A stretch of DNA of 32,000 nt from an uncultured delta proteobacterium (lineage in GTDB: Bacteria > Desulfobacterota > Syntrophorhabdia > Syntrophorhabdales > WCHB1-27): the NCBI GenBank assembly GCA_963816715.1, contig CAWFMJ010000024.1, forward strand, positions 14,111-46,110, in the 5' to 3' direction. Below are positions 1 to 28,475 of the stretch, in pieces. Position 1 is the stretch's first letter. Each line of letters begins with the position of its first letter. The notes under the pieces were generated by a model that saw nothing but the letters and a program-made list of their open reading frames with translations, did no database searches and was not told the origin of the DNA. The position numbers and the translations under genes are program-made.

Positions 1-3000
1 AGGTATTGGCGCCGCTGAATGAAGAGTCGGTGCGCAAGGCAGTGCGATACCTGAAGAGTAAGAAGGTCGAATCCATCGCGGTGATGCTTATGTTCTCGCC
101 CATTCATCCCCAACACGAGGAGAGAATTGGCGAGATCGTTCGAGAGGAATGCCCCGGCGTCTATGTCGCCTTGTCATCTAAAATATTGCCCGTAATAGGT
201 GAGACCGAGAGATGGAGCACCACGATGTTCAGCGCCTACGTGGCCCCCGCAGTCAGCAGGTACCTGGCGGATCTGCGGCAGGCCCTCAAAGAATCGGGCT
301 TCAAGGGAGAATTGGCCTTCACGCAGAGCAACGGGGGGATCGCCACTCCCGACATCGTTCTCGACAACCCGGCAGTGCTGCTTCTTTCAGGTCCCGCGGC
401 GGGTCCGTCCCTCGGCCTTGCCCTCGGAGGCGTTCATGGTTCGCAGAACATCCTTTCCGTTGACATGGGAGGCACCAGTTTTGACGTGGGCGTCGTCTAC
501 GATGGAAACGTGAACATCGTGCAGCAAAAGATTATCGACGCCAAGAAATTCAGCCTCCCGTCTGTAGACGTGGCGGCGGCAGGAGCAGGCGGAGGGAGCA
601 TTGCGTGGATCGACGCGAGCGGAAGACTTCAAGTGGGTCCCAAGAGCGCGGGCGCCTATCCGGGCCCTGCCTGCTATGGCACGGGCGGCACGGAACCGAC
701 GGTCACCGATGCCGACGTTGTGCTCGGCTACATCGACCCGGAATTCTTCCTCGGCGGGGAGACAAAACTCAGGAAGGACCTCGCGGAAAAAGCCATCAAA
801 GAGAAGATAGCCGACCCGCTCGGCATGTCGGTGATCGACGCGGCCGCGGCAATCTACGACATCGTGAACGCGGTCATGGCGGGCGCCACGGACGTGAGCT
901 TTGCGAAACGCGGGTACGACCCGAGAGAGTTCACGCTGTGCGCCGCAGGCGGAGCGGCGCCCGTGCACGCCGTGCCGATCATGGAAGAGCTCGGCATCAA
1001 GAAATTGATCATACCGAAAGTCGCCCCAACCTACTGTGCTTTCGGGATGATGTTCTGCGACCTGAAGCACGACTACACGAAACCCTACGCATCCGAGACG
1101 ACGAAGGCGGACCTCGCCCTTATGAATCGTCTCTACGACGACATGGAGAAAATGGGCCGGGAGACCTTGAAGCGCGAAGGCGTCTCCCCGGAAGACGTGG
1201 TCATTGAGAAATCGATGGAGGTCAGGTACTACGGTCAGTTCCGGCAGCGATTTGCGAAGGTCCCCGCGGGGGACGTGACCGATGAGACGCTCAAGGCGAC
1301 AATTGACAACTTTCACGAGGTGCACAGTTCGGCCATGGGTTACGCCGATCCTGCCTTTCCCACCGAGATAATGTGTCTTCACCTGACGGCCGCCGCCAAC
1401 TTGGCAAAGCCCGAACTACGGGCAACGAACGGAGGGGCAGGTGAGTCGGCGTCGGCAGTGAAGGGCGCCCGGGAAGCCTATTTTGACGGTCATGGCACGA
1501 TGAGGGCGAAGGTTTACGATGGGAATAAGCTCTTCGCAGGCAACAGCGTCGAAGGTCCCGCCATCATCGAAGAAAAGTTCACGACTGTCGTGATACCTCC
1601 TGCCGCGACGGCTTCGGTAGATATCGTCGGGAATTACCTCGTGACCACCGACGGGACAGCCGGAAGCAAACGACCGACGAAGGAATCGGGAGGCAACGTC
1701 GATCCGACGACCTTCTCGGTGATTTGGAACAAATTCGAGTACCTGGCCGACCAGATAGGGCAGAAGATACTCTACTCCACGCAATCCTTTGTGACGGCGA
1801 ACGCCCGCGACCTCGGCCAGACGCTCTTGAACAAAGCCGGGAAGATTGTCGTTGCGTCGGCCTATTTGCCCATCCATACGCTTGTGGCTGAAGAAGCCAT
1901 CAGAGGCATTGAGTCCTATTTTCACGGCGACTACGAGCCGGGCGATTTCGTCGTGTCGAACGACCCTTACATTGTCAAGGGAGGACACCTTCCCGACTGG
2001 AATTTCATCAGGCCAATCTTTTACAAGGGCGAACACATCGGGTACTTCCAGGCAAAGACGCACGTTACCGACACAGGCGGCTTTCTGCCCGGAGGATACG
2101 GACCCGGCGCCTATGACATAATCGCCGAAGGGCTCAACATCCCCCCTATCAAGGTCTACAAAAAAGGAGTCCTGCAAAAAGAACTATGGGGATTTCTGTT
2201 GCGCAATATCAGGAACCCTACCGAAGTGGACATGGATACCAATCTGATAAACGGCGCAATGGCCCAGGCTGAAGAACAAGTGGCGTTGCTCTGCGACAAG
2301 TATGGCGTCGAAGCCGTCAAGGCCTGTCTGACGGAAATAGTGGCCGCAGGCGAAAAGGCAATGCGTGCGGAAATCGCCAAGATACCCGATGGCGTTTACT
2401 ACGGGGAATCGGCCACGGACTGGGACGGCAAGACGGACAAACCAATCTTCGTCCGGGTGAAGACTACCGTGAAGGGAGAGGAGATTACCTTCGACTTCTC
2501 GGACAGCGACCCCCAGGCTACCTTTGTCAACGTTCCCCTCGGTCTCACCAAAATGGATGTACTGCCCGGCTTCTATTCGCTCATCGATCCCAGCGTCCCG
2601 AAGAACGGCGGCACCATGAACCCCGTCACCGTGATCGCGCCCGAAGGAACCGTCGTGAACCCTCAGTACCCCGCAACGGTAGGGGCGTCGCAGATCGCCT
2701 GCGGCATCCAGATAGAGGAAGCCTGCATGTATGCTCTCAACCAGGCCATGCCCGATCGGGCTATGGCGGGATGGTCGAAGCATCTTTGCCCCATTCAGTT
2801 AGGCATGGATCCGAGGATCGTCGATCCGCGAACAGGACACATCAAACAGTACTGGTCCGAAACCTTCGGCTCTGACGGAGGGTCGGGCGCCCTCAAAGGC
2901 TATGACGGGTGGCAGGGAGTTGCCATCCTCGGGTCAGGGGCGAACTTCGGGAGGCCGAACATGGAGTTCTATGAAGCAACCTGTCCCTACCTAGTGACAA

Positions 3001-3467
3001 AGTACGAGATCCTTCCTGACTGGGAAGGCGCCGGCGAGTTCCGCGGCGGTCCGGGCACCTTTGTCGAACTCGTCGCCTACACTGCCGAGGGGGCGCCATC
3101 CCTGATCATGACGGGAAACAGCGACGGGACGAGATTCACCGTGCCGGGCGCTGCAGGCGGCCAGGATGGGCCCAAGGCAGAGATGTACCTGGAAGCCGTC
3201 GACGGGACCCGGAGAGTCCTTCGCACGATGACCACCGTCCCCATTTTTCCGGGCGAAAAATGCGCGAGCAGGGCAGCCGGCGGAGGAGGGTGGGGAAACC
3301 CGCTCAATCGGGACCCGCAGCGCGTTCAAAACGATGTGATCGAGGGACTCGTATCGCTCCAGAGAGCAAGGGATGTCTATGGGGTCGTCTTCTACCCGGA
3401 GACGTTTGAGGTGGATGCGGCGGCTACGGACGCTCTCAGAAAAGCGATGAAGGCAAAGCAGGCTTAA
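1..3467 (+). CDS. Fused hydantoinase/oxoprolinase-family protein (HyuA-like N-half + HyuB-like C-half), 5' end cut by window edge
   Basis: One continuous 1153-codon frame is open from the first bases of the window. The track start at 6 is a TTG inside the domain, so the true start lies upstream. The N-half carries hydantoinase A/ASKHA-type segments (LLLSGPAAGP, SVDMGGTSFDVG, AAGAGGGSIAW). From about nt 1690 (DPTTFSVIWNKFEYLADQIGQKILYSTQSFVTANARD, SNDPYIVKGGHLPD) it is hydantoinase B/oxoprolinase-like. Stop TAA at 3465-3467. Confidence 0.85.
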   Translation, partial: VLAPLNEESVRKAVRYLKSKKVESIAVMLMFSPIHPQHEERIGEIVREECPGVYVALSSKILPVIGETERWSTTMFSAYVAPAVSRYLADLRQALKESGFKGELAFTQSNGGIATPDIVLDNPAVLLLSGPAAGPSLGLALGGVHGSQNILSVDMGGTSFDVGVVYDGNVNIVQQKIIDAKKFSLPSVDVAAAGAGGGSIAWIDASGRLQVGPKSAGAYPGPACYGTGGTEPTVTDADVVLGYIDPEFFLGGETKLRKDLAEKAIKEKIADPLGMSVIDAAAAIYDIVNAVMAGATDVSFAKRGYDPREFTLCAAGGAAPVHAVPIMEELGIKKLIIPKVAPTYCAFGMMFCDLKHDYTKPYASETTKADLALMNRLYDDMEKMGRETLKREGVSPEDVVIEKSMEVRYYGQFRQRFAKVPAGDVTDETLKATIDNFHEVHSSAMGYADPAFPTEIMCLHLTAAANLAKPELRATNGGAGESASAVKGAREAYFDGHGTMRAKVYDGNKLFAGNSVEGPAIIEEKFTTVVIPPAATASVDIVGNYLVTTDGTAGSKRPTKESGGNVDPTTFSVIWNKFEYLADQIGQKILYSTQSFVTANARDLGQTLLNKAGKIVVASAYLPIHTLVAEEAIRGIESYFHGDYEPGDFVVSNDPYIVKGGHLPDWNFIRPIFYKGEHIGYFQAKTHVTDTGGFLPGGYGPGAYDIIAEGLNIPPIKVYKKGVLQKELWGFLLRNIRNPTEVDMDTNLINGAMAQAEEQVALLCDKYGVEAVKACLTEIVAAGEKAMRAEIAKIPDGVYYGESATDWDGKTDKPIFVRVKTTVKGEEITFDFSDSDPQATFVNVPLGLTKMDVLPGFYSLIDPSVPKNGGTMNPVTVIAPEGTVVNPQYPATVGASQIACGIQIEEACMYALNQAMPDRAMAGWSKHLCPIQLGMDPRIVDPRTGHIKQYWSETFGSDGGSGALKGYDGWQGVAILGSGANFGRPNMEFYEATCPYLVTKYEILPDWEGAGEFRGGPGTFVELVAYTAEGAPSLIMTGNSDGTRFTVPGAAGGQDGPKAEMYLEAVDGTRRVLRTMTTVPIFPGEKCASRAAGGGGWGNPLNRDPQRVQNDVIEGLVSLQRARDVYGVVFYPETFEVDAAATDALRKAMKAKQA

Positions 3468-4470: not shown

Positions 4471-4584
4471 AGGGTTGAAGAGGCGCTCCAAGAAGCGGGA
4501 GAAGCAGGGGGACCCAGCTCGGGCGGATAGGCAAAGCGCTCTACGGGTCGAACGCCAAAAACCATTTCCAGAAAGGGAGGGCAC

Positions 4585-5856
4585 ATGAAGGAAGAAAGTT
4601 ACCCCGGTTACAGGTGGTTTGTCATAGTGGCCATGGGAATCATTGTTGTTGCCCAGGGAATAGTCCTCATAGCTCCGGCGCCGCTGGTGGGGGTTGTTGC
4701 GAAGAAGCTGGGGATGACGATAGGCCAGGCAACGGGCGGCACGATGGGACTCTTCACCATCGTGGTGGCGGTCGTCTCCATGGCGGGCGGGCCTCTCATG
4801 GACAAACTCGGGTCGGCTTGGTCAAGGATCCTTTCTGTTGCGCTTATGCTCATCGGTACGTTGCTCATGCCGATTATCGGAACGTCTTTCGGCGGACTTC
4901 TCGTCTGCAGGGCCATACAGGCGGTCGGGGCGGCATTCACCATGGGTTCTCTTGCCAGGATTGCTTCCGACTGGTTCCCGCCGAACCAAAGGTCGCTTGC
5001 CGTGGGACTTCAGGGCACGGGGCAGGCAATAGGCATCGCCCTGGGGTTTGCTCTCATACCGTCGGCCTTTGCACGCAGCGGCAACCTTGAATGGTCTTTG
5101 ACCACGTCAACAACAATAGCGCTCGCAGTAGGAGGAGTGCTGGGCCTGATAATCCTGTTTGGACCCAAGCCGCCTATCCAGGCCGCGGTCAGCGGTTCAT
5201 CGGCGCCGACGGGTTTGTTCAGGCGCGCAGTCGCCACGCCGGCGACATGGGTCGCCATCGTTGGCGGCGCGGTGATGACCTGGGTCTATATGGCATTTAA
5301 CGATCTCACCCCCGGATATCTAGCAATAGACAAACCCGTCGGGCTTGGCTTAGGGCCGGTGCACGCCGGTCAAATCATGATCGGCGCGCAACTATCCTTC
5401 ATGCTTGGCTGCATCTTTACAGGAATCATCATCGAAAAACTGTTCCGCGGCAGTACGAGACCGCTGCTCGTCATCTGTACGATCGGGTCCGCCGTCTGCG
5501 TGTACGCCGTCAAGTCTCAAGCAGTCCTCGCCAGCCAACCCCTTCTCCTGGCGACGATAGTGCTCGCCGGGTTCTTCCTGGGAGTCCCTCTGGCTGCCGC
5601 GCTCGGATTCCTCGCAAAATATTATCCGAATCAAATATCGGGCGCTCTTGGGGGGCTGGGAATGGGAATCTCGATCCTCCTCGGCGCCATAGGGTTGAAC
5701 GTCAATGCCTATCTGCTGCACACAACCGGCTTCTATTTCACCTCCATCACGCTCATAACGGTTCTATCGATTGTCTCCTTCGTCATCTGTCTCTTTCTCG
5801 TGCCTCCCAAGGCATTCGGCGTTCAACGCGAAGCGGGGCTTGCCCTGAACACGTGA
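4585..5856 (+). CDS. MFS-type transporter
   Basis: 423 aa and strongly hydrophobic throughout, with about 12 predicted helices by eye and a glycine-rich MFS-like pattern. RBS GGGAGGG lies upstream of the ATG at 4585. Confidence 0.8.
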   Translation: MKEESYPGYRWFVIVAMGIIVVAQGIVLIAPAPLVGVVAKKLGMTIGQATGGTMGLFTIVVAVVSMAGGPLMDKLGSAWSRILSVALMLIGTLLMPIIGTSFGGLLVCRAIQAVGAAFTMGSLARIASDWFPPNQRSLAVGLQGTGQAIGIALGFALIPSAFARSGNLEWSLTTSTTIALAVGGVLGLIILFGPKPPIQAAVSGSSAPTGLFRRAVATPATWVAIVGGAVMTWVYMAFNDLTPGYLAIDKPVGLGLGPVHAGQIMIGAQLSFMLGCIFTGIIIEKLFRGSTRPLLVICTIGSAVCVYAVKSQAVLASQPLLLATIVLAGFFLGVPLAAALGFLAKYYPNQISGALGGLGMGISILLGAIGLNVNAYLLHTTGFYFTSITLITVLSIVSFVICLFLVPPKAFGVQREAGLALNT

Positions 5857-13433: not shown

Positions 13434-13871
13434 TCAGGGTGATTCGTACAGCGATTCGGGCAGCGATTCTATATACGCCTTGATCTCGTCTCGCACGCGC
13501 CGGTAGTGCCGCATGGCCTGCTCTTTGTCCGGGGCGTCTTTTGCGAGCCGGGGCGGATCCTCAAAACTGCGGTGGATGAGAGCCGTTTTGGCGGGGAAGA
13601 AGGGACAGGTCTGCTGGGCATCGTCGCAGAGGGTGATGACGTAATCAAACTCCCTATCGCCCAGCTCTGCCACCGATTTGGACCGCTGCCCGGAGATATC
13701 AACGCCTGCTTCCTCCATGGCCCGCACGGCCCGTGGATCGACGCCTTGAGGCTGGGTTCCCGCCGAGTACGCTTCCAGAATGTCTGCCTTCAAGCGTTTT
13801 GCCCATCCTTCGGCCATCTGGCTGCGGCAGGAATTGCCCGTACAAAGGAACAACACTTTCAGTTTCCGCAT
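13434..13871 (-). CDS. arsC: Arsenate reductase, thioredoxin-coupled LMW-PTPase type
   Basis: P-loop LFLCTGNSCRSQMAEG (CX5R). The downstream Cys pair VITLCDDAQQTCP matches the C10/C82/C89 architecture of pI258-type ArsC. Confidence 0.9.
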   Translation of the reverse strand: MRKLKVLFLCTGNSCRSQMAEGWAKRLKADILEAYSAGTQPQGVDPRAVRAMEEAGVDISGQRSKSVAELGDREFDYVITLCDDAQQTCPFFPAKTALIHRSFEDPPRLAKDAPDKEQAMRHYRRVRDEIKAYIESLPESLYESP

Positions 13872-13926
13872 GACCTGCTCCGAAAGTCATCCTGCTGAAT
13901 CTTACAGGAATGGCGCCGCCCAATCT

Positions 13927-14229
13927 TTACTGACAGGAGGGGCAGCCGTCGTCATCCACGACGCAACAGGCCTTCTTTCTGCCAAGCATCTTGTTGAGTA
14001 GGCCCGCTGCACAGCCCACACCCGCCCTCACGTTCAGGGAGCCGCTCGGGCAGTTCTGCCGGCAGGCGCCGCACTCGATGCACGCGTCCCGGGAGGCGAC
14101 TTCGATCTTCCCGTTCACAGGCCGGAACACCTCGCGCGGGCAGACGGCAAGGCACATGCCGCAGCCCGTGCACCGGGAAGCGTCAAAGGCGAGAGTGACC
14201 ACATCTTCAAGGTAGAGCAAGGGACGCAT
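13927..14229 (-). CDS. hgcB: HgcB, 2x[4Fe-4S] ferredoxin partner of HgcA
   Basis: This 100-aa ORF starts at ATG 14229 and is the C-terminal part of the track's 352-aa ORF. It has two ferredoxin motifs, CTGCGMCLAVCP and CIECGACRQNCP; the second contains the HgcB signature C(M/I)ECGA. A single Cys lies at residue 73 (GVGCAAG) and a vicinal CC at 88-89. The start lies 5 nt after the hgcA stop. Confidence 0.85.
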   Translation of the reverse strand: MRPLLYLEDVVTLAFDASRCTGCGMCLAVCPREVFRPVNGKIEVASRDACIECGACRQNCPSGSLNVRAGVGCAAGLLNKMLGRKKACCVVDDDGCPSCQ

Positions 14230-14234
14230 GGCTT

Positions 14235-15152
14235 CTACCCTCCCATCGCTGCGGCGGCGATCCACAGAGCGAGGCCCACGGTCATCCCCCCTACTTCGAG
14301 GGGAAGGGCAAGACGCATCTCCTTCTGAACTCCGGAGAGCGACGTATACGTGGAGGCGCCGGTAAAGTTCATCGCCAAAAATGCAGCCAAAGCGGGAATG
14401 GAGAAGAGCTGGGCGAGAGCAGCGGCCACGCCGGGATGCAGGAAGGCGTTGTTGAACGCGAGGGCGCAAAGGGCGAACAGGAAACCCGGGCCGAGGCCCT
14501 TTGTCGAGAAGGCCCTGCCGGGCAGCCAGGGGAGAAGAAGGGGGGCAAGGGTCGCTCCGGCAAGGATCGAGGCGCCGAGGGAAACGGCAGCCGGCAAGAT
14601 CCAGTATGCCGCCTTCGATACAGAGAAGCCGGAAACAAGGAAGAAAAGGATGGAGAGCCCCGCCGCCGCGAGGATACCCCACTTGAGGCCGGGCACAACC
14701 TCCATGGGGACCAGGGCGAGCCTCTCGTTGAGACAAAAATCCTTTGTCCGCATCCGGCCCGTTGCCTTCAGACCGTTTTTGAGGAAGGCAGGCAGGTCGT
14801 CCGCGCGGACCGGGCCGTAAACCACCTGAAAACCGGAGCGCTGCCTTACAACGTGTGCCGATACGCCGGGCGCGCCCAACTGCGGCACGATAAGGCGCCG
14901 ATGGGATACGATGGCCGCGAGGCCGCTCGACTCGATGCGCTCCACCAGCTCGTCCGTCCCGAACGTGCCCTTTCCCGCTGCGCACCAGACGTTAATCCCC
15001 TGCGTGTCGAGGACGAGGATCCACCCATCTATCCCGGCGAGGGCCCTTCTGAGGAGGTCGAAGGTCATCTTGTAGTTCGCGGTCACAAAAACCGGCGATT
15101 CCGGACGGGCAGTTCCTATCCCATACAGGCCGGGCTCGACCGCGTAGCGCAT
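14235..15152 (-). CDS. hgcA: HgcA, corrinoid mercury-methylation protein (minimal ORF from the first in-frame ATG; the true N-terminus very likely lies upstream, see 15153-15359)
   Basis: The diagnostic cap-helix motif GINVWCAAGKGTFGT is present, corresponding to N(V/I)WCA(A/G)GK. The corrinoid-binding-domain-like N-half (VFVTANYKMTFDLLRRAL, WILVLDT) is followed by about 5 hydrophobic helices. It sits directly upstream of hgcB. Confidence 0.88.
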   Translation of the reverse strand: MRYAVEPGLYGIGTARPESPVFVTANYKMTFDLLRRALAGIDGWILVLDTQGINVWCAAGKGTFGTDELVERIESSGLAAIVSHRRLIVPQLGAPGVSAHVVRQRSGFQVVYGPVRADDLPAFLKNGLKATGRMRTKDFCLNERLALVPMEVVPGLKWGILAAAGLSILFFLVSGFSVSKAAYWILPAAVSLGASILAGATLAPLLLPWLPGRAFSTKGLGPGFLFALCALAFNNAFLHPGVAAALAQLFSIPALAAFLAMNFTGASTYTSLSGVQKEMRLALPLEVGGMTVGLALWIAAAAMGG

Positions 15153-15359
15153 GCGTCCGATCCCCCATCGCGCCTTGAAGGCGCCGAGTCGGTCAGACCC
15201 GCTAAAAATCTGCGATACCCGAGGGACGGCGCCGACGCCGGTCTCTATCGAACCCGTGACGAAAGCCTGATCGAAGCGCGGAGGACTCGCCTGAGCCCTT
15301 TGCTTCGGTCCTCAACAGGCTTTCGCGGCAGGCGTCTTGATCTGGCACAAGGTTTCCAT
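15153..15359 (-). other. hgcA: In-frame upstream extension of hgcA containing a TGA codon (15312-15314); candidate selenocysteine recoding, or alternatively a nonsense lesion
   Basis: Hand translation of the minus strand gives ATG(15359-15357) ETLCQIKTPAAKAC-TGA-GPKQRAQASPPRFDQAFVTGSIETGVGAVPRVSQIFSGSDRLGAFKARWGIGR-ATG(15152). There is no ATG, GTG or TTG between the TGA and 15152. From memory of HgcA homologues, this stretch looks like conserved HgcA N-terminal sequence. Confidence 0.5.
15272..15307 (-). promoter_or_regulatory. SECIS-like bipartite hairpin starting 4 nt after the in-frame UGA of hgcA
   Basis: The mRNA reads UGAGGAC-CGAAGC-AA-AGGGCUC-AGGC-GAGUCCU-CCGC-GCUUCG. The lower stem is 6 bp (CGAAGC/GCUUCG). 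The upper stem is 7 bp (AGGGCUC/GAGUCCU, with one G-U pair). The apical tetraloop AGGC places GG at nt +24/+25 counted from the U of UGA. This is comparable to the loop G23/U24 position in the E. coli fdhF SECIS. Folded by hand only. Confidence 0.35.
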
Positions 15360-15366
15360 ATTTTCA

Positions 15367-15395
15367 AACATAAACGCTTTCGACGTCCCTGTCAA
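15367..15395 (-). promoter_or_regulatory. Sigma70-type promoter candidate for hgcA (TTGACA-N17-TATGTT)
   Basis: On the minus strand, the -35 TTGACA is at 15395-15390, followed by a 17-nt spacer and the -10 TATGTT at 15372-15367. The ATG at 15359 begins 8 nt after the -10 hexamer, which implies a leaderless or near-leaderless transcript. Confidence 0.35.
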
Positions 15396-15400
15396 GAGGA

Positions 15401-15497
15401 TATATAAACTATTTTAGATGTGAGGTAACTATTTGATTGACCTGGGCCACGATATGCGTTATCAATATTAATCATACTTGATGTAAGCGGAGGGAAA
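15401..15497. promoter_or_regulatory. AT-rich divergent control region between hgcA and arsR, with candidate arsR promoter and operator repeats
   Basis: Plus-strand TTGACC (15437-15442), N17, TATCAA (15460-15465), with RBS GGAGGG at 15489-15494. An inverted repeat ATCAA-N12-TTGAT (15461-15482) overlaps the -10. The direct repeat AACTATTT occurs at 15407 and 15427, 20 nt apart. Confidence 0.35.
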
Positions 15498-15860
15498 ATG
15501 GATGAGCTCCTATCCTTATTCAAAGCGCTGTCGGACGAAACGAGGTTGAGGATAGTAAAGCTCCTGGAGAACGGCGAGCTTTGTGTATGCCATCTCGTGG
15601 CCGCTGTCGACATGTCCCAGCCGAAGGTTTCGTTCCACCTCAAGGTACTGAAGGGGGCGGGGCTGATCAAGGACAGGCGCGAGGGGAAATGGATGTATTA
15701 TCGCCTCAATGAATCGGACCTGTTCAAACGACTCCTTTTTCTGTCCGTCGCCGACCGGGTCCGGGAGGAAGAGATGGCGGCCGACCACGCAAGACTCGAC
15801 GCGTTCAGGACGCCGCGCGCGGATGGGGACCCTGGGACCGGTTGCTGTGTGGGGGCATGA
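15498..15860 (+). CDS. arsR: ArsR/SmtB-family metalloregulator
   Basis: [50 protein letters not shown] is a winged HTH carrying the type-1 As(III) site ELCVC(D/H)L. An additional vicinal CC lies near the C-terminus (GTGCCVGA). Confidence 0.9.
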
Positions 15861-16951
15861 AAATGAACGACACGACCCGCAGACTGTCTTTCCTCGACCG
15901 CTTCCTGACGCTCTGGATCTTCCTCGCCATGTTCGTCGGCGTCGGCTGGGGATATGCCTTCCCCGGCGTGGTGGCTTTCTGGAATCGCTTCCAGAGCGGG
16001 ACAACGAACATCCCGATTGCCATCGGCCTTATCCTCATGATGTACCCACCCCTGGCGAAGGTCAGGTACGAAGAGCTCGGCGAGGTTTTCAAGAACTTCA
16101 AGGTCCTCGGCCTGTCACTCGTGCAGAACTGGGTGGTGGGCCCGATCCTCATGTTCGTTCTCGCGATCGTTTTCCTCGAGGGCTATCCCGACTATATGGT
16201 GGGCCTCATCATGATCGGCCTGGCCCGCTGCATCGCCATGGTCATCGTGTGGAACGACCTTGCCAGGGGAGACGCCGAGTACTGCGCGGGCCTCGTGGCC
16301 TTCAACGCCCTCTTCCAGGTCCTCTTCTTCAGCGTTTACGCCTACGTCTTTATCACGGTCCTGCCCCCGATGCTCGGCCTGAAAGGCGTTGTGGTCAATA
16401 TCACCATAGGCCAGATCGCCAAAAGCGTCTTCATCTATCTGGGCGTTCCTTTCATCGCGGGCGTAGCGACGCGTTTTGTCCTCATTAACGTCAAGGACAA
16501 GGTCTGGTATCACGAGCGGTTCATCCCGAAGATCAGCCCCATCACCTTGATCGCCCTCCTGTTCACGATCCTCGTGATGTTCTCCCTCAAGGGCGAGTAT
16601 ATCGTCAAGATCCCTCTCGATGTAGTCCGCATCGCGGTTCCGCTCCTTGTCTACTTCATCGTCATGTTTCTCGTTTCCTTCTACATGAGCGGCAAGGTCG
16701 GCGCCCACTACGGCCAGGCAGCCACCCTGTCATTTACTGCGGCTTCCAACAACTTCGAGCTGGCGATCGCCGTCGCGGTTGCCGTTTTCGGCATCAATTC
16801 CGGGCAGGCCTTCGCAGCAGTCATAGGTCCGCTGGTTGAAGTGCCGGTGCTGATCAACCTGGTCCATCTGTCTCTGTGGTTCAAGAGGAAATACTTCCCC
16901 TATGCAAGAGAAACAGCAATCGGGGTGTGCTACTACACGTGCAGGCAGTAA
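15857..16951 (+). CDS. acr3: ACR3-family arsenite efflux permease
   Basis: [21 protein letters not shown] and the conserved [13 protein letters not shown] segment with the essential Cys are present, with about 10 TM helices. ATG 15857 overlaps the arsR stop (ATGA). ATG 15863 is an alternative start. Confidence 0.9.
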
Positions 16952-16976
16952 GACTATTTCGATCAAGGGGGCCGAG

Positions 16977-17426
16977 ATGAAGAACAGAACCGAAGTTGCG
17001 GTAGAGAAGTTTATGCAGGGTTACAACTGTGCCCAGTCGGTATTCTACTCTTTTTGCGACGACGTCGGATTCGATAAGAATGCGGCGTTGAAAATAGCCT
17101 GTGGATTCGGGGCCGGCATGGGGCGCAAAGAGGAGGTCTGCGGCGCCGTAACGGGCGGGATAATCGTCATCGGTATGAAATATGGCAGGGGCGAGAACGA
17201 CGCCCGTGCGGCTACGGAACTGACCTATGCAAAGACGCGAGAGCTGATGGACCGTTTTTCAGAGAAGCGCGGGACCTTCATCTGCCGAAAGCTGCTGGAC
17301 GGCTGCGAACTCACCGCCGAGGAGGGACAAAAGCACTTCAAGGAGAAGGACCTCTCGAACAAAACATGCAAGCTGTGCGTTCAAGACGCAGTCAGCATCC
17401 TGGAAGGCATCATTCAGGCAGAGTGA
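16977..17426 (+). CDS. C_GCAxxG_C_C family putative redox protein
   Basis: Family-defining pattern: YNCAQSV, CGFGAGMG (GCAxxG-like) and EEVCGAVTGG, plus late cysteines (FICRKLL, CKLC). ATG 16977 with RBS AAGGGGG is preferred over the track start 16902, which overlaps acr3. Confidence 0.8.
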   Translation: MKNRTEVAVEKFMQGYNCAQSVFYSFCDDVGFDKNAALKIACGFGAGMGRKEEVCGAVTGGIIVIGMKYGRGENDARAATELTYAKTRELMDRFSEKRGTFICRKLLDGCELTAEEGQKHFKEKDLSNKTCKLCVQDAVSILEGIIQAE

Positions 17427-25102: not shown

Positions 25103-25886
25103 ATGCGTCCAATCTGGTCAGGCGCCGTCAGCTTCGGGTTGATCAACATCCCAGTGAAGCTCTACTCGGCGGTAGGGGAAAAGGGTCCCGACCTTGACAT
25201 GCTCAGGCGTCAGGATCTTTGTCCCATACGGTACGCACGGGTCTGCCGCGACACGGGGGAGGAGGTCCCCTATGAGGATATCGTGAAAGGCTATGAGTAC
25301 CGAAAGGGCGATTATGTCGTTCTCGAAGACGAGGACTTCAAACGGGCCGCTGCCGTGAAGACCCAGACCATCGACATTGTGGAATTTGTCGACGTCAGCG
25401 AAGTAGACCCGAAGTTCTTTGAGAAACCTTACTACCTCGAGCCGACGAAACAGTCAGCCAAGGCCTACGCCATTTTGCGGGAAGCCCTGAAAAAAACAGG
25501 GAAAGTGGGCGTGGGCGTCTTCGTTCTCCGCAACCGGGAACGCCCGATCGCCCTCAAGCCGGAGGGGGACCTCATCGTGCTCGAACAGATGCGCTTCGTC
25601 GACGAGATCAGGACGCCCGAGGGACTCAATTTGCCCTCGAAGGACGAAGCGACCGAGCGGGAGCTGGACATCGCGATAAAATTGATCGACCAACTCGCGG
25701 AGCCCTTCAAGCCCGAGCAGTTTCACGACTCCTACAAAGAGGAACTGGAAAAAGCTAGTGCAGGACAAAATTCAGGGAAAACCGCCTGAAGCCCCCAAAG
25801 AGGCGCCGACGCCGACGGAAGTGCCGGACCTCATGGCAAAGCTCCGGGAAAGTCTCGAGTATGCGCGAAAAAGAAAGACCGCCTGA
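25103..25886 (+). pseudogene. ku: Ku (NHEJ DNA-end-binding protein), interrupted by a +1 frameshift at an A5 run (25749-25753); as sequenced the ORF ends at 25789
   Basis: MRPIWSGAVSFGLINIPVKLYSAV is the canonical bacterial Ku N-terminus. After ...YKEELEK the given frame reads ASAGQNSGKTA-stop. The +1 frame reads LVQDKIQGKPPEAPKEAPTPTEVPDLMAKLRESLEYARKRKTA-stop (25884-25886), which is a typical Ku C-terminal tail. Removing one A from the run restores a single ~260-aa ORF. Confidence 0.85.
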
Positions 25887-28475
25887 CGAGTCCGGCGAAA
25901 ACCTCAAAGAATACCGCGAAAAACGGGACTTCTCGGTCACTCCCGAGCCGCCAGGGACAAAAGGCGCCGAGGAAGAAAGGCCGCTCTCTTTCGTGGTTCA
26001 CAAGCATCAGGCCTCGCATCTTCACTATGATCTCCGTCTGGAACTTGACGGAGTGTTGAAAAGCTGGGCAGTCCCGAAGGGGCCGTCCCTCGATCCGGGC
26101 GAAAGAAAGCTGGCGATGATGGTGGAGGACCACCCCTTCGACTACCGGACCTTTGAGGGAGTCATCCCCGAGGGCAATTACGGGGCCGGGACAGTGATGA
26201 TCTGGGACCGGGGCGATTATCGCGCCGCTGGCCGCACGGGCCGACGGGAGAGCGAGGAGGCGCTGAGACAGGGTTTGAGCCGAGGCCATATCAGCTTCGT
26301 GCTGAACGGGCAAAAGCTGAAGGGGGAATTCGCCCTCGTGCGTTTGAAAAGAGCCGAAGAGAACAGTTGGCTTCTCATTAAGGCAAAGGATGAATTCGCG
26401 CAAAGTCCGTGGCGTCCGCAGGACGAGACGTCGGTCGCCTCCGGTAGGAGCATGGAGGAAATCGCGGCGGCGGAGGCCGCTACCCCCGCAGCGGCCCTTC
26501 ACGCTAAGGAGAAGGACCGCCAGGCGCCAAAGTACACGCCCCTCGACCTTGCCGATGCCCCGGCAGCGCCCATGCCCGCGCATGTCAAGCCGATGATGGC
26601 AACCCTCGTGGAAAAGCCCTTCGACCGGCCCGGCTGGCTCTTTGAAATCAAGTGGGACGGGTATCGGGCTCTTTGCGAGGTGAAAGGAGGCGCTGTCCGC
26701 CTCTACTCCCGAAACGACTTGACCATGAATGATCGCTTCCCGGCCCTGGCGGCGGCCCTCGCCAGCTTGCCCTTCGACGCTTTGCTTGATGGAGAGATAG
26801 TGGCGCTGGACAAATCGGGGAAGGCCGACTTTCAACTGCTTCAAAATTACCTGACGTCGGGCCAGGGCGAGCTTGTCTATTATGTCTTCGACCTCCTTTA
26901 CTACAGTGGCCGGGACCTCAGAGTGCTTCCCCTCACCAGACGCAAATCGGCCCTCGAGAAGATTATCGCGGGCCGACCCTTCCTGAGGCTGAGCGACCAT
27001 GTGGAGGCGCAGGGAGAGGCCCTTTTCCAGGCGGCGAAAGAGGCAGGCGTCGAGGGGATCGTCGCAAAGGACGGCGGCAGTCCCTACCGGTCGGGTCATC
27101 GGGGCCGGGAATGGCTGAAGGTGAAGACGCACTTGCGCCAGGAAGCGGTGATCGCCGGCTTCACTCAGCCGCGGGGCGGAAGGACCGGCTTTGGCGCCCT
27201 CGTCCTCGGTGTTTACGAAAACGGCTCGCTCGTCTACATCGGTCATACGGGCGGCGGATTTACCGACGCGCAGCTCGAGTCTCTTCACAAGCTCCTTCTG
27301 CCGCTTGCCGCAAAAGAGTCCCCTTTCAATAAGCCGCCGGCGACGAACACGCCGGCGACGTGGGTCGCCCCCAAGCTCGTCGCCGAAATCAGCTTTTCCG
27401 AGTGGACGAAGGAGGGGATCATGCGCCACCCTGTTTTTCTTGGCCTACGAGAAGATCTCGATCCCCTTGACGTGAAGAAGGAGCAACCCCAAAACCTGTC
27501 ATTCGGGACGATGCCCGGCTCAGACCCTCAGGTGGGGACGGAAGCCTCGAGAAAGCGCAAAGGAAGGCTCGTCGCCATCAACGACGTCAAGGTCGATCTG
27601 ACCAATCTGGAGAAGGTGCTCTGGCCCGGCGAAGGATATACCAAAGCAGACCTGATTGCCTACTACCGGTCTGTGGCGCCCTTTATCCTCCCCTATCTCA
27701 AGGACCGCCCGGAGTCGCTCCATCGCCATCCCGACGGCATCGCTTCCCCGGCTTCTTCCAGAAGAACGTCGGCAACGCCTTCCCGGCCTGGGTCGAAACG
27801 GTCCGCGTCTATTCAGAGTCGGACGGCAAGGAAGTGAACTACCTCCTCTGTCAGGACGAAGCGGCCCTCGTCTACATGGCAAACCTCGGCTGCATCGAGA
27901 TCAATCCCTGGCATGCAAGGACCGGACATCTCGATAATCCCGATTACATGGTCCTCGACCTCGACCCCCTGGACATTCCGTTCCATGAGGTGGTGCGATG
28001 CGCCCTTGTCACCCGCGACGTGCTCGCCACGGTAGGCGCCGCCTGTTTCTGCAAGACATCGGGCGCCACAGGCCTTCACGTTTATGTCCCCCTCGGAGCC
28101 CAATACTCCCACGATCAGGCCACGCAGTTCGCCCGGCTCGTCAACCACCTGGTACACCGGCGTCTGCCCGGCAGCACAAGCCTCGAAAGGATGCCGGAGA
28201 AGCGAAAAGGAAGGGTCTACCTCGACTTCCTCCAAAACGGCCGCGGTCAGACCCTCGTTGCGCCCTATTGCCTGCGGCCCGGAAAAGGCGCTCCGGCTTC
28301 CACCCCGCTTCTCTGGGAAGAGGTGAACGACTCCCTCGATCCCGCCCGCTTCACCATAGAGACCATGGGGGCGCGTTTGCAGCAGATGGGCGATCTGTGG
28401 AAAGATGTGCTCGGCCCCGGCATCGATATGGAGCAGTGTCTCGCCCGAATCGACGAAATGTTCGAAAAACCGTAG
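25861..28475 (+). pseudogene. ligD: DNA ligase D (phosphoesterase-ligase-polymerase order), split by a frameshift at a C4 run (27746-27749) into ORFs 25861-27837 and 27834-28475
   Basis: PE domain: FVVHKHQASHLHYDLRLELDG. Ligase domain: FEIKWDGYR (motif I lysine) and EGIVAK. Pol/primase domain start: LTNLEKVLWP...RHPDGI. After the C4 run, frame 0 becomes ASPASSRRTS...stop. The other frame reads GFFQKNVGNAFPAWVETVRVYSESDGKEVNYLLCQDE...MVLDLDP...SGATGLHVYVPL, a canonical LigD-Pol sequence. One additional C restores a single ~871-aa ORF. Confidence 0.85.

Follow-up and report, generated by a model that had tools for sequence, protein, structure and literature searches.

Background

HgcA makes methylmercury, a neurotoxin that accumulates in food webs. 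The closest described precedent for the gene considered here is the work of Haft and Gwadz, who reported that most HgcA proteins are selenoproteins with an N-terminal motif of cysteine followed by selenocysteine (Sec; the pair is written CU) (bioRxiv 10.1101/2022.07.06.499078; journal version J Bacteriol 205:e00259-22, 2023, as cited in PMC13188914). We examine the hgcA gene of a 32,000-nucleotide (nt) stretch of DNA (henceforth the window; positions 14,111 to 46,110 of contig CAWFMJ010000024.1 in assembly GCA_963816715.1) from an uncultured delta proteobacterium of the order Syntrophorhabdales, in which an in-frame TGA that very probably specifies Sec directly follows a cysteine codon. All 20 HgcA genes that Haft and Gwadz examined have the CU motif, placed in an N-terminal extension and with the pentapeptide PCUGP invariant; these authors found the Sec machinery to be encoded in 20 of 20 species examined, gave the extensions for DND132_1056 and GSU1440, and supplied reference data to the NCBI annotation pipeline (10.1101/2022.07.06.499078). 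A 2026 review (PMC13188914) counts both HgcA (NF040863, CU; e.g. WP_250697417.1) and HgcB (NF040864, GVGU) among the prokaryotic selenoproteins, and a 2024 biochemical study in PNAS (PMC11588087) says that some HgcA homologues 'may be selenoproteins', and nothing firmer.

The preliminary description of this locus, made from the sequence letters, had implied that a Sec-containing HgcA would be novel; this does not hold, given the description by Haft and Gwadz in 2022-2023. The window gene shares with the published selenoprotein HgcA genes a family score above the equivalog cut-off, an N-terminal extension ahead of the old start, a single in-frame UGA right after a Cys codon, the continuation CUGP, and occasional Cys-Cys counterparts. 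Its UGA is codon 16, 54 codons 5' of the annotated ATG, and it differs from the published form in having Ala before the dyad (ACUGP) in place of Pro (PCUGP).

The full-length hgcA frame

The listing of open reading frames (ORFs) calls hgcA at 14235..15152 on the minus strand, with a product of 305 residues that begins MRYAVEPGLY. The ATG used for this call (15150..15152, minus strand) encodes Met70 of the longer frame and lies within a conserved RWGIGRM motif. It had been noticed that this first ATG falls inside sequence that still looks like HgcA, and the alignment bears this out: the frame 5' of it reads ...FVTGSIETGVGAVPRVSQIFSGSDRLGAFKARWGIGR-M, and D56, G59, W65, G66 and R69, all of which lie 5' of Met70, are invariant in an alignment of 30 HgcA sequences. 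Inspection codon by codon likewise agreed with the earlier claim that no ATG, GTG or TTG stands in frame within the 159 nt (53 codons) that separate the TGA from ATG 15152, with only ATA, ATT and ATC in their stead; the chance of 53 start-free codons is about 0.07, which is weak evidence taken alone. The frame is closed, as first described, by the TGA at 15312..15314 (minus strand), which is preceded by the Cys15 codon TGT at 15315..15317, the first half of the proposed Cys-Sec dyad. On the 5' side of the TGA it stays open through the two ATGs at 15359 and 15371 up to a TAA at 15416-15414. The wider minus-strand translation in this frame is HI-(stop)-NSLYILLTGTSKAFMFENMETLCQIKTPAAKAC-(stop)-GPKQRAQASPPRFDQAFVTGSIETGVGAVPRVSQIFSGSDRLGAFKARWGIGRMRYAVE..., and the N-terminal reading across the TGA is M-F-E-N-METLCQIKTPAAKAC-[TGA]-GPKQRAQ.

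Translation, profile score and homologues define a full-length frame at 14235..15359 (minus strand) of 374 codons, including the one UGA (Sec16), followed by a TAG stop at 14237-14235; apart from the UGA the gene is intact, with no further stops. With Sec written as Cys, the product scores 431.8 bits (E = 1.5e-129) on the NCBIfam equivalog NF040863, for which the cut-off is 275, and matches profile positions 1-323 of 325 with residues 45-370. The family model thus takes in the 25 residues, from 45 on, that precede Met70. The cap-helix motif N(V/I)WCA(A/G)GK, with its cobalt-ligating Cys, is present as NVWCAAGK (residues 123-130), and N123, V124, W125, C126, A127 and G129 are invariant in the same alignment. 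Nevertheless, the gene callers of NCBI, ENA and Logan all output the truncated 305-residue HgcA (P0001, unnamed); this database entry is an annotation artefact that arises from a Sec codon taken as a stop. In a second assembly of this sequence (L081, a 2.1-kb Logan contig from run ERR11523660) the TGA is identical. As 15 of the 24 other genes in the window end in TGA, which makes it the most frequent ordinary stop there, the genetic code is not a recoded one, and a genome-wide reassignment of TGA is ruled out.

An AlphaFold2 model was made for P0005, a Cys-Cys orthologue that is 70% identical to the window HgcA (mean predicted local distance difference test score, pLDDT, 79.5). In this model residues 21-60 have a pLDDT of 76-93, with strands at 34-40 and 43-48 and a helix at 54-64. 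Because of these values and the invariant residues noted above, the stretch between the TGA and Met70 is predicted to be a structured, conserved part of HgcA. Residues 1-20, which include the Cys pair at 15-16, have a pLDDT below 50 and no secondary structure; the model thus agrees with the flexible N-terminal tail that had been proposed, and the Cys-Sec dyad is predicted to lie on this disordered tail. Five long helices between residues 210 and 371 are as expected of the HgcA transmembrane domain, and the window HgcA aligns to P0005 over this region without notable gaps.

The Sec/Cys signature across hgcA loci

The preliminary description had pointed to a Cys opposite the TGA in orthologues as the classical sign of a Sec codon, and the nearest full-length homologues indeed have Cys-Cys at this site. 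P0003, P0005 and P0022 are 70%, 70% and 62% identical to the long HgcA over 100% of its length, and these three, P0076, P0079 and others align Cys-Cys with the Cys-TGA of the window. Around the dyad the window reads METLCQIKTPAAKAC-U-GPKQRAQASPPRFDQAFV, P0005 METLIPLHTPAAPSC-C-GSWKRTQASPPSLDQPFV, P0003 ...HTPAAPSC-C-GSRKRTQASPPRLDQPFV and P0022 ...EKITPSC-C-GGRRRAETVPPRLDQPFV. The Cys of P0005 is genuine, since the DNA of its locus (L082, from the Syntrophorhabdales metagenome-assembled genome GCA_050011095.1) reads tcc tgc TGC ggg. Conserved coding sequence 5' of ATG 15152 and a Cys or TGA codon at the aligned site are both present in orthologues.

For a broader view we surveyed 80 hgcA loci from GTDB species genomes, walking each upstream in frame from a conserved anchor. 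A Cys-TGA pair occupies the aligned site in 34 of these loci, which come from several orders (e.g. AQSC-U-GPKMRTQ in L001 and VPC-U-GPSEKRG in Syntrophorhabdus aromaticivorans UI, L004), and a Cys-TGY pair, i.e. Cys-Cys, in 22. Four further loci have Ser-, Thr- or Gly-TGA with a nearby hairpin (stems of 4-6 base pairs), three have a TGA that is seemingly fortuitous, and the remaining 17, mostly from Bacteroidota, Bacillota and others, have a short N-terminus that lacks the dyad.

The dyad itself is variable. Beside Cys-Sec we observed Ser-Sec (L012), Thr-Sec (L030 and L033), Cys-Sec-Cys (L054) and, in Desulfacinum infernum DSM 9756 (L045), the reversed order Gly-Sec-Cys (U-C); all five loci have a hairpin at about the usual offset, with a stem of only 4 base pairs in L030. 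The contexts met across the survey include SCUPP, GCUPK, SCUAP, CUC, GUC, SU and TU. Given these variants, the published PCUGP is not invariant, and given its occurrence in only 3 of the 34 CU-type loci it is unreliable as a defining feature, whereas the CU dipeptide is reliable.

A SECIS-type hairpin follows the TGA

Directly 3' of the TGA the preliminary description had placed a bipartite hairpin with an AGGC loop and the geometry of a bacterial selenocysteine insertion sequence (SECIS). Folding reproduced this element as a 36-nt structure at 15272..15307 (minus strand; -17.1 kcal/mol), in which a lower stem CGAAGC/GCUUCG (15307-15302 with 15277-15272) and an upper stem of 7 base pairs (15299-15293 with 15288-15282) are capped by the loop at 15292-15289, which starts 22 nt after the U of the UGA. 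The bacterial SECIS model specifies a loop of 3-9 nt, an upper stem of at least 4 base pairs, a G in the first two loop positions, a spacing of 16-37 nt and a minimum free energy of -7.5 kcal/mol or lower (PMC13188914), and the window hairpin satisfies every one of these constraints.

The hairpin was also sought in related genomes, scored as at least 5 consecutive pairs with a loop of 4-6 nt whose start is 19-28 nt 3' of the codon's first base, a check that the preliminary description had suggested. It occurs in 34 of 35 CU genes (the 34 loci and the window) against 1 of 22 Cys-Cys (CC) loci (Fisher p = 2.2e-13), the G+C content of the two groups being alike (0.61 and 0.60). In 25 of the 34 hairpin-bearing CU genes the loop lies at offset 22 and is 4 nt long. 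In an alignment of 39 sequences (A2) pairing of the 7-pair helix amounts to 82% in register, and sliding the 3' partners by 1-3 columns lowers it to 29-59%. Moreover, the paired columns covary: at pair 30/37, U-A (26 sequences) is replaced by C-G in 11, pair 28/39 varies among G-C (27), G-U (5) and A-U (3), and the observed covariation score was reached by none of 500 column shuffles. The loops (AGGU, AGUU, AGGC, GGCA, GGGC and similar) have a G at position 1 or 2, mostly followed by G or U. A scan of 15150-15500 against Rfam at E-values up to 10 returned only a spurious small nucleolar RNA match of 11.5 bits and no curated family for an hgcA SECIS.

The one exception among the CC loci is the P0005 locus, L082, which has TGC at the site and still keeps GGACUC-AGGC-GAGUCC (within 3045-3090) at the usual offset. 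From its sequence this hairpin looks like a fossil SECIS left after a recent Sec-to-Cys change.

The promoter and a predicted leaderless start

Upstream of the long frame lies a predicted sigma-70-type promoter (15367..15395, minus strand) with a -35 hexamer TTGACA at 15395-15390, a 17-nt spacer and a -10 hexamer TATGTT at 15372-15367, amounting to 10 of 12 consensus matches. TTGACA-N17-TATGTT is the sole match of this type in the 1.8 kb between 13800 and 15600, and its -10 hexamer contains ATG 15371, with 7 nt separating the end of the hexamer from ATG 15359. We propose ATG 15359 (15357..15359, minus strand; METLCQ...) as the true start, with which the orthologue starts align (METLIPLH in P0005, MKTHCEIE in L001). 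This arrangement suggests that the hgcA mRNA would be leaderless, with its 5' end at or beside ATG 15359 and Sec at codon 16. Such a start, if correct, puts the beginning of the transcript 5' of the TGA; a transcript start 3' of 15312, which the preliminary description had raised as a difficulty for its proposal, is therefore not predicted. ATG 15371 was also considered as a start and is ruled out, as it lies inside the predicted -10 hexamer and the orthologues start at the position of ATG 15359.

The same order of elements, TTGACA, 17-18 nt, TATNNT, 6-7 nt and ATG, is perfectly conserved at hgcA in all six Syntrophorhabdus-like loci (the window, L082, L001, L002, L003 and L004), none of which has a usable Shine-Dalgarno sequence before the hgcA start. 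This promoter architecture was not seen in the more distant CU-type loci.

Proposed mechanism and alternative explanations

These observations, namely the Cys-Cys homologues, the Cys-TGA pairs in other loci, the conserved hairpin and the lack of an alternative start, support the proposal of the preliminary description, and on the strength of the sequence comparisons we consider it very probable that the TGA at 15314-15312 specifies selenocysteine, which would make the product a selenoprotein HgcA with a Cys15-Sec16 pair. Under this interpretation transcription from TTGACA-N17-TATGTT would yield an mRNA whose first base is that of AUG 15359 or lies no more than one or two bases away. Translation would begin at this AUG and meet the UGA at codon 16, with the SECIS hairpin directly 3' of it. 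By the established bacterial mechanism the hairpin would then recruit SelB with Sec-tRNA(Sec) and guanosine triphosphate, so that Sec would be inserted without termination. Translation would continue through the beta-hairpin and helix (residues ~30-65), the corrinoid-binding domain with its NVWCAAGK cap helix and the transmembrane domain, giving an HgcA of 374 residues whose disordered N-terminal tail (about 20-30 residues) would carry the vicinal Cys15-Sec16. The dyad is probably a soft-metal ligand of very high affinity, which could capture Hg(II) or another thiophilic substrate and deliver it to, or receive it from, the methyl-corrinoid site and the Cys-rich HgcB tail. The same role might be filled by Cys-Cys or Cys-Cys-Cys in the genomes of relatives.

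Several points weigh against the Sec assignment. The 32-kb window contains none of selA, selB, selC and selD, and no tRNA was found in it; neither did the literature yield a published demonstration of selenium in any HgcA. The pentapeptide of the window is ACUGP, so that the PCUGP published as invariant is not found. The hairpin is only marginally more stable than dinucleotide shuffles of its sequence (z = -1.66, with 10 of 200 folding as well), and the case for it hence rests on the comparative data. A GGGGGA lies 8-9 nt 5' of ATG 15152 and could permit some internal initiation. Finally, a recombinant HgcA of ND132, termed full-length and bearing an N-terminal His-tag, methylates Hg in E. coli lysates (PMC11588087). 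The paper does not mention the CU extension, which that construct presumably lacked; basic catalysis would then not require the tail. Since 17 of the 80 surveyed loci do without the tail and the ND132 protein, presumably tail-less, is active, the tail is an accessory element outside the catalytic core.

Three other explanations of the TGA have to be set against its reading as a Sec codon. It might be a true stop, with the functional HgcA consisting of the 305 residues from ATG 15152 and the upstream 15-codon ORF being a leader peptide or untranslated. All three gene callers output exactly this product, the purine-rich GGGGGA is located 8-9 nt 5' of its ATG, and the ND132 protein made in E. coli, presumably without the CU extension on which its authors are silent, still methylates Hg. 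However, a 305-residue product would miss 25 positions of the HgcA equivalog together with a beta-hairpin and helix that are conserved and modelled with confidence. The 53-codon interval from the TGA to Met70 shows protein-level conservation across phyla, the GGGGGA simply codes for the conserved W-G-I, and the position-locked, covarying hairpin of the TGA forms would be left unexplained. We therefore regard a true stop as very improbable. About the same slight chance can be given to a UGA that is read through without Sec, by a near-cognate Trp or Cys tRNA or some other recoding, with the hairpin acting as a generic stimulator. What speaks for it is that Cys works at the site in many relatives. 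Nonetheless, the geometry of the hairpin and its G-containing loop fit the SelB-dependent bacterial SECIS model, the Sec machinery was present in 20 of 20 species of Haft and Gwadz, and TGA is the commonest ordinary stop in the window.

Least probable of all is an origin of the TGA in a nonsense mutation, which would make hgcA a pseudogene, or in a base-call or assembly error. An assembly error is plausible in principle, since elsewhere in the contig at least one single-base indel is apparent, namely in ligD, which is frameshifted in a C run near 27736-27745. Against this, TGA stands at the aligned codon in 34 other genomes of several orders and is identical in the second assembly; the gene is otherwise free of stops, and an error is unlikely to place a TGA 22 nt before the loop of a SECIS-type hairpin.

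Building on the selenocysteine reading, we also entertain a wider and distinctly more speculative scenario for the Syntrophorhabdus-like clade, which we think possible but rather unlikely in its entirety. Here the leaderless hgcA would yield full-length HgcA under a double gate, by selenium via SelB and by arsenic or S-adenosylhomocysteine (SAH) via the divergent ArsR. The Cys-Sec tail would be the primary site of substrate acquisition, with Hg(II) or some other soft-metal or organometallic substrate passing between it and the HgcB tail, and the HgcB tails of some relatives might hold unreported Sec.

The gene neighborhood

The partner ferredoxin gene hgcB (13927..14229, minus strand; 100 residues; NF040864, 109.9 bits against a cut-off of 99) starts 5 nt downstream of the hgcA stop and is preceded by the Shine-Dalgarno sequence GGGAGGG. 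Its product has Cys (GVGC) at the position that Sec occupies in a few HgcB proteins. The HgcB proteins of the window, L001, L003 and L082 lack the usual terminal Cys-Cys and have instead ...KKACC, an acidic stretch and further Cys residues (VVDDDGCPSCQ). In L082 a TGA (~4428) stands opposite the Cys of relatives (...SCPS-TGA-TAG as against ...GCPSCQ in the window). Likewise, the tail in L054 (~4427) reads ...TGRC-TGA-TCC-TGA where relatives have ...GCC, and in L077 (~1287) the usual CC tail (SCCD) is reachable only through a TGA. These three TGAs may be Sec sites distinct from the published GVGU site; no convincing hairpin was seen 3' of them.

Divergent from hgcA is a gene for an ArsR/SmtB-family regulator (15498..15860, plus strand; NF033788, E = 1e-31), which is the likely regulator of hgcAB. 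The hgcAB genes sit within an arsenic-resistance cluster (13434-17426) that further includes acr3 (15842-16951), a gene for a C-GCAxxG-C-C family protein (16902-17426), a family that has selenoprotein members, and a thioredoxin-type arsC (13434-13871) downstream on the strand of hgcAB. This setting fits the finding, published for P. mercurii ND132, that ArsR controls hgcAB (bioRxiv 10.1101/2022.10.17.512643). A search of the hgcA-arsR intergenic region for an ArsR operator found only short AT-rich palindromes, from which we draw no conclusion. In L082 arsR is likewise divergent from hgcA, with a C-GCAxxG-C-C gene adjoining. Its hgcB is followed (4473-5840) by a gene for a 455-residue pyridine-nucleotide-disulfide oxidoreductase with a dimerisation domain, of the mercuric-reductase/lipoamide-dehydrogenase type, after which comes a gene of the VKOR family; in the window this place is taken by arsC.

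Elsewhere in the window the DNA ligase D gene (25861-28475) is split into ORFs of 658 and 213 residues, the frame switching between ...LHRHPDGI and FFQKNVG at the C run (tccccggc) mentioned above. The split has the look of a single-base deletion, arising as an indel of the assembly or as a real frameshift; the neighboring Ku gene (25103-25789) is intact. At the edge of the window an open ORF of 1153 residues (6-3467, plus strand) encodes fused hydantoinase/oxoprolinase-type alpha and beta parts (caprolactamase- or acetophenone-carboxylase-like) and is followed by genes for a CoA-transferase and then an enoyl-CoA hydratase. These genes probably form a catabolic cluster for a carboxylase or lactamase, without relation to hgcA.

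Significance and comparison with known systems

A Cys-Sec pair on HgcA would rank among the strongest biological ligands of Hg(II) and would tie the formation of methylmercury to the availability of selenium, an idea that has already been published. The value of the window is confirmatory and practical, in that a reading of the raw sequence without tools can recover a real selenoprotein. Databases still carry the truncated 305-residue HgcA, and the published biochemistry of HgcA seemingly used the formerly annotated form, presumably without the tail; the promoter and the predicted leaderless start can guide the design of experimental constructs.

Vicinal Cys-Sec pairs linked to mercury-like or organometallic chemistry are also known from SaoL (MerB-like), SaoB, SaoC and a MerT-family selenoprotein (Haft and Gwadz). 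The homologues of these proteins that lack Sec are 'packed' with extra Cys, which is a further likeness to HgcA. They differ in having unrelated folds and a CU pair near the C-terminus or in exported proteins, whereas HgcA is a membrane corrinoid protein with the pair on its N-terminal tail. At the RNA level, the hgcA element shares with the bacterial SECIS (the bSECISearch consensus, with E. coli fdhF/fdnG as prototype) the form of a coding-region hairpin directly 3' of the UGA. It departs from the prototypes in constituting a sequence family of its own, with the consensus GGCUC-AGGU-GAGCC (encoding A-Q-V-S) and no Rfam match.

The preliminary description had drawn parallels with two kinds of terminal tail. 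In MerA the N-terminal NmerA domain and the C-terminal Cys pair serve as Hg(II) hand-off tails. The HgcA tail resembles these and the C-terminal Cys-Cys of HgcB (C94/C95; PMC11588087) in presenting paired soft ligands on a mobile segment beside a metal-processing active site. It differs in that the others are all-cysteine and it would have one selenium ligand, and hand-off by the HgcA tail is only conjectural. Mammalian thioredoxin reductase has a C-terminal Gly-Cys-Sec-Gly that forms a redox-active selenenylsulfide, and its mRNA has a eukaryotic SECIS in the 3' untranslated region. Both proteins thus have adjacent Cys and Sec on a flexible terminal arm, followed by Gly; unlike that of HgcA, the pair of thioredoxin reductase is C-terminal, has a redox role, depends on a SECIS in the 3' untranslated region and belongs to an unrelated fold.

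The selenoprotein form of HgcA was already known from the literature, so that the window provides a new and well-supported example rather than a discovery. The Haft and Gwadz preprint (10.1101/2022.07.06.499078) does not describe the SECIS of hgcA, its promoter or a leaderless arrangement, and our additions to this prior work are modest: the comparative statistics on the SECIS, the apparent fossil hairpin of L082 and the prediction of a leaderless start.

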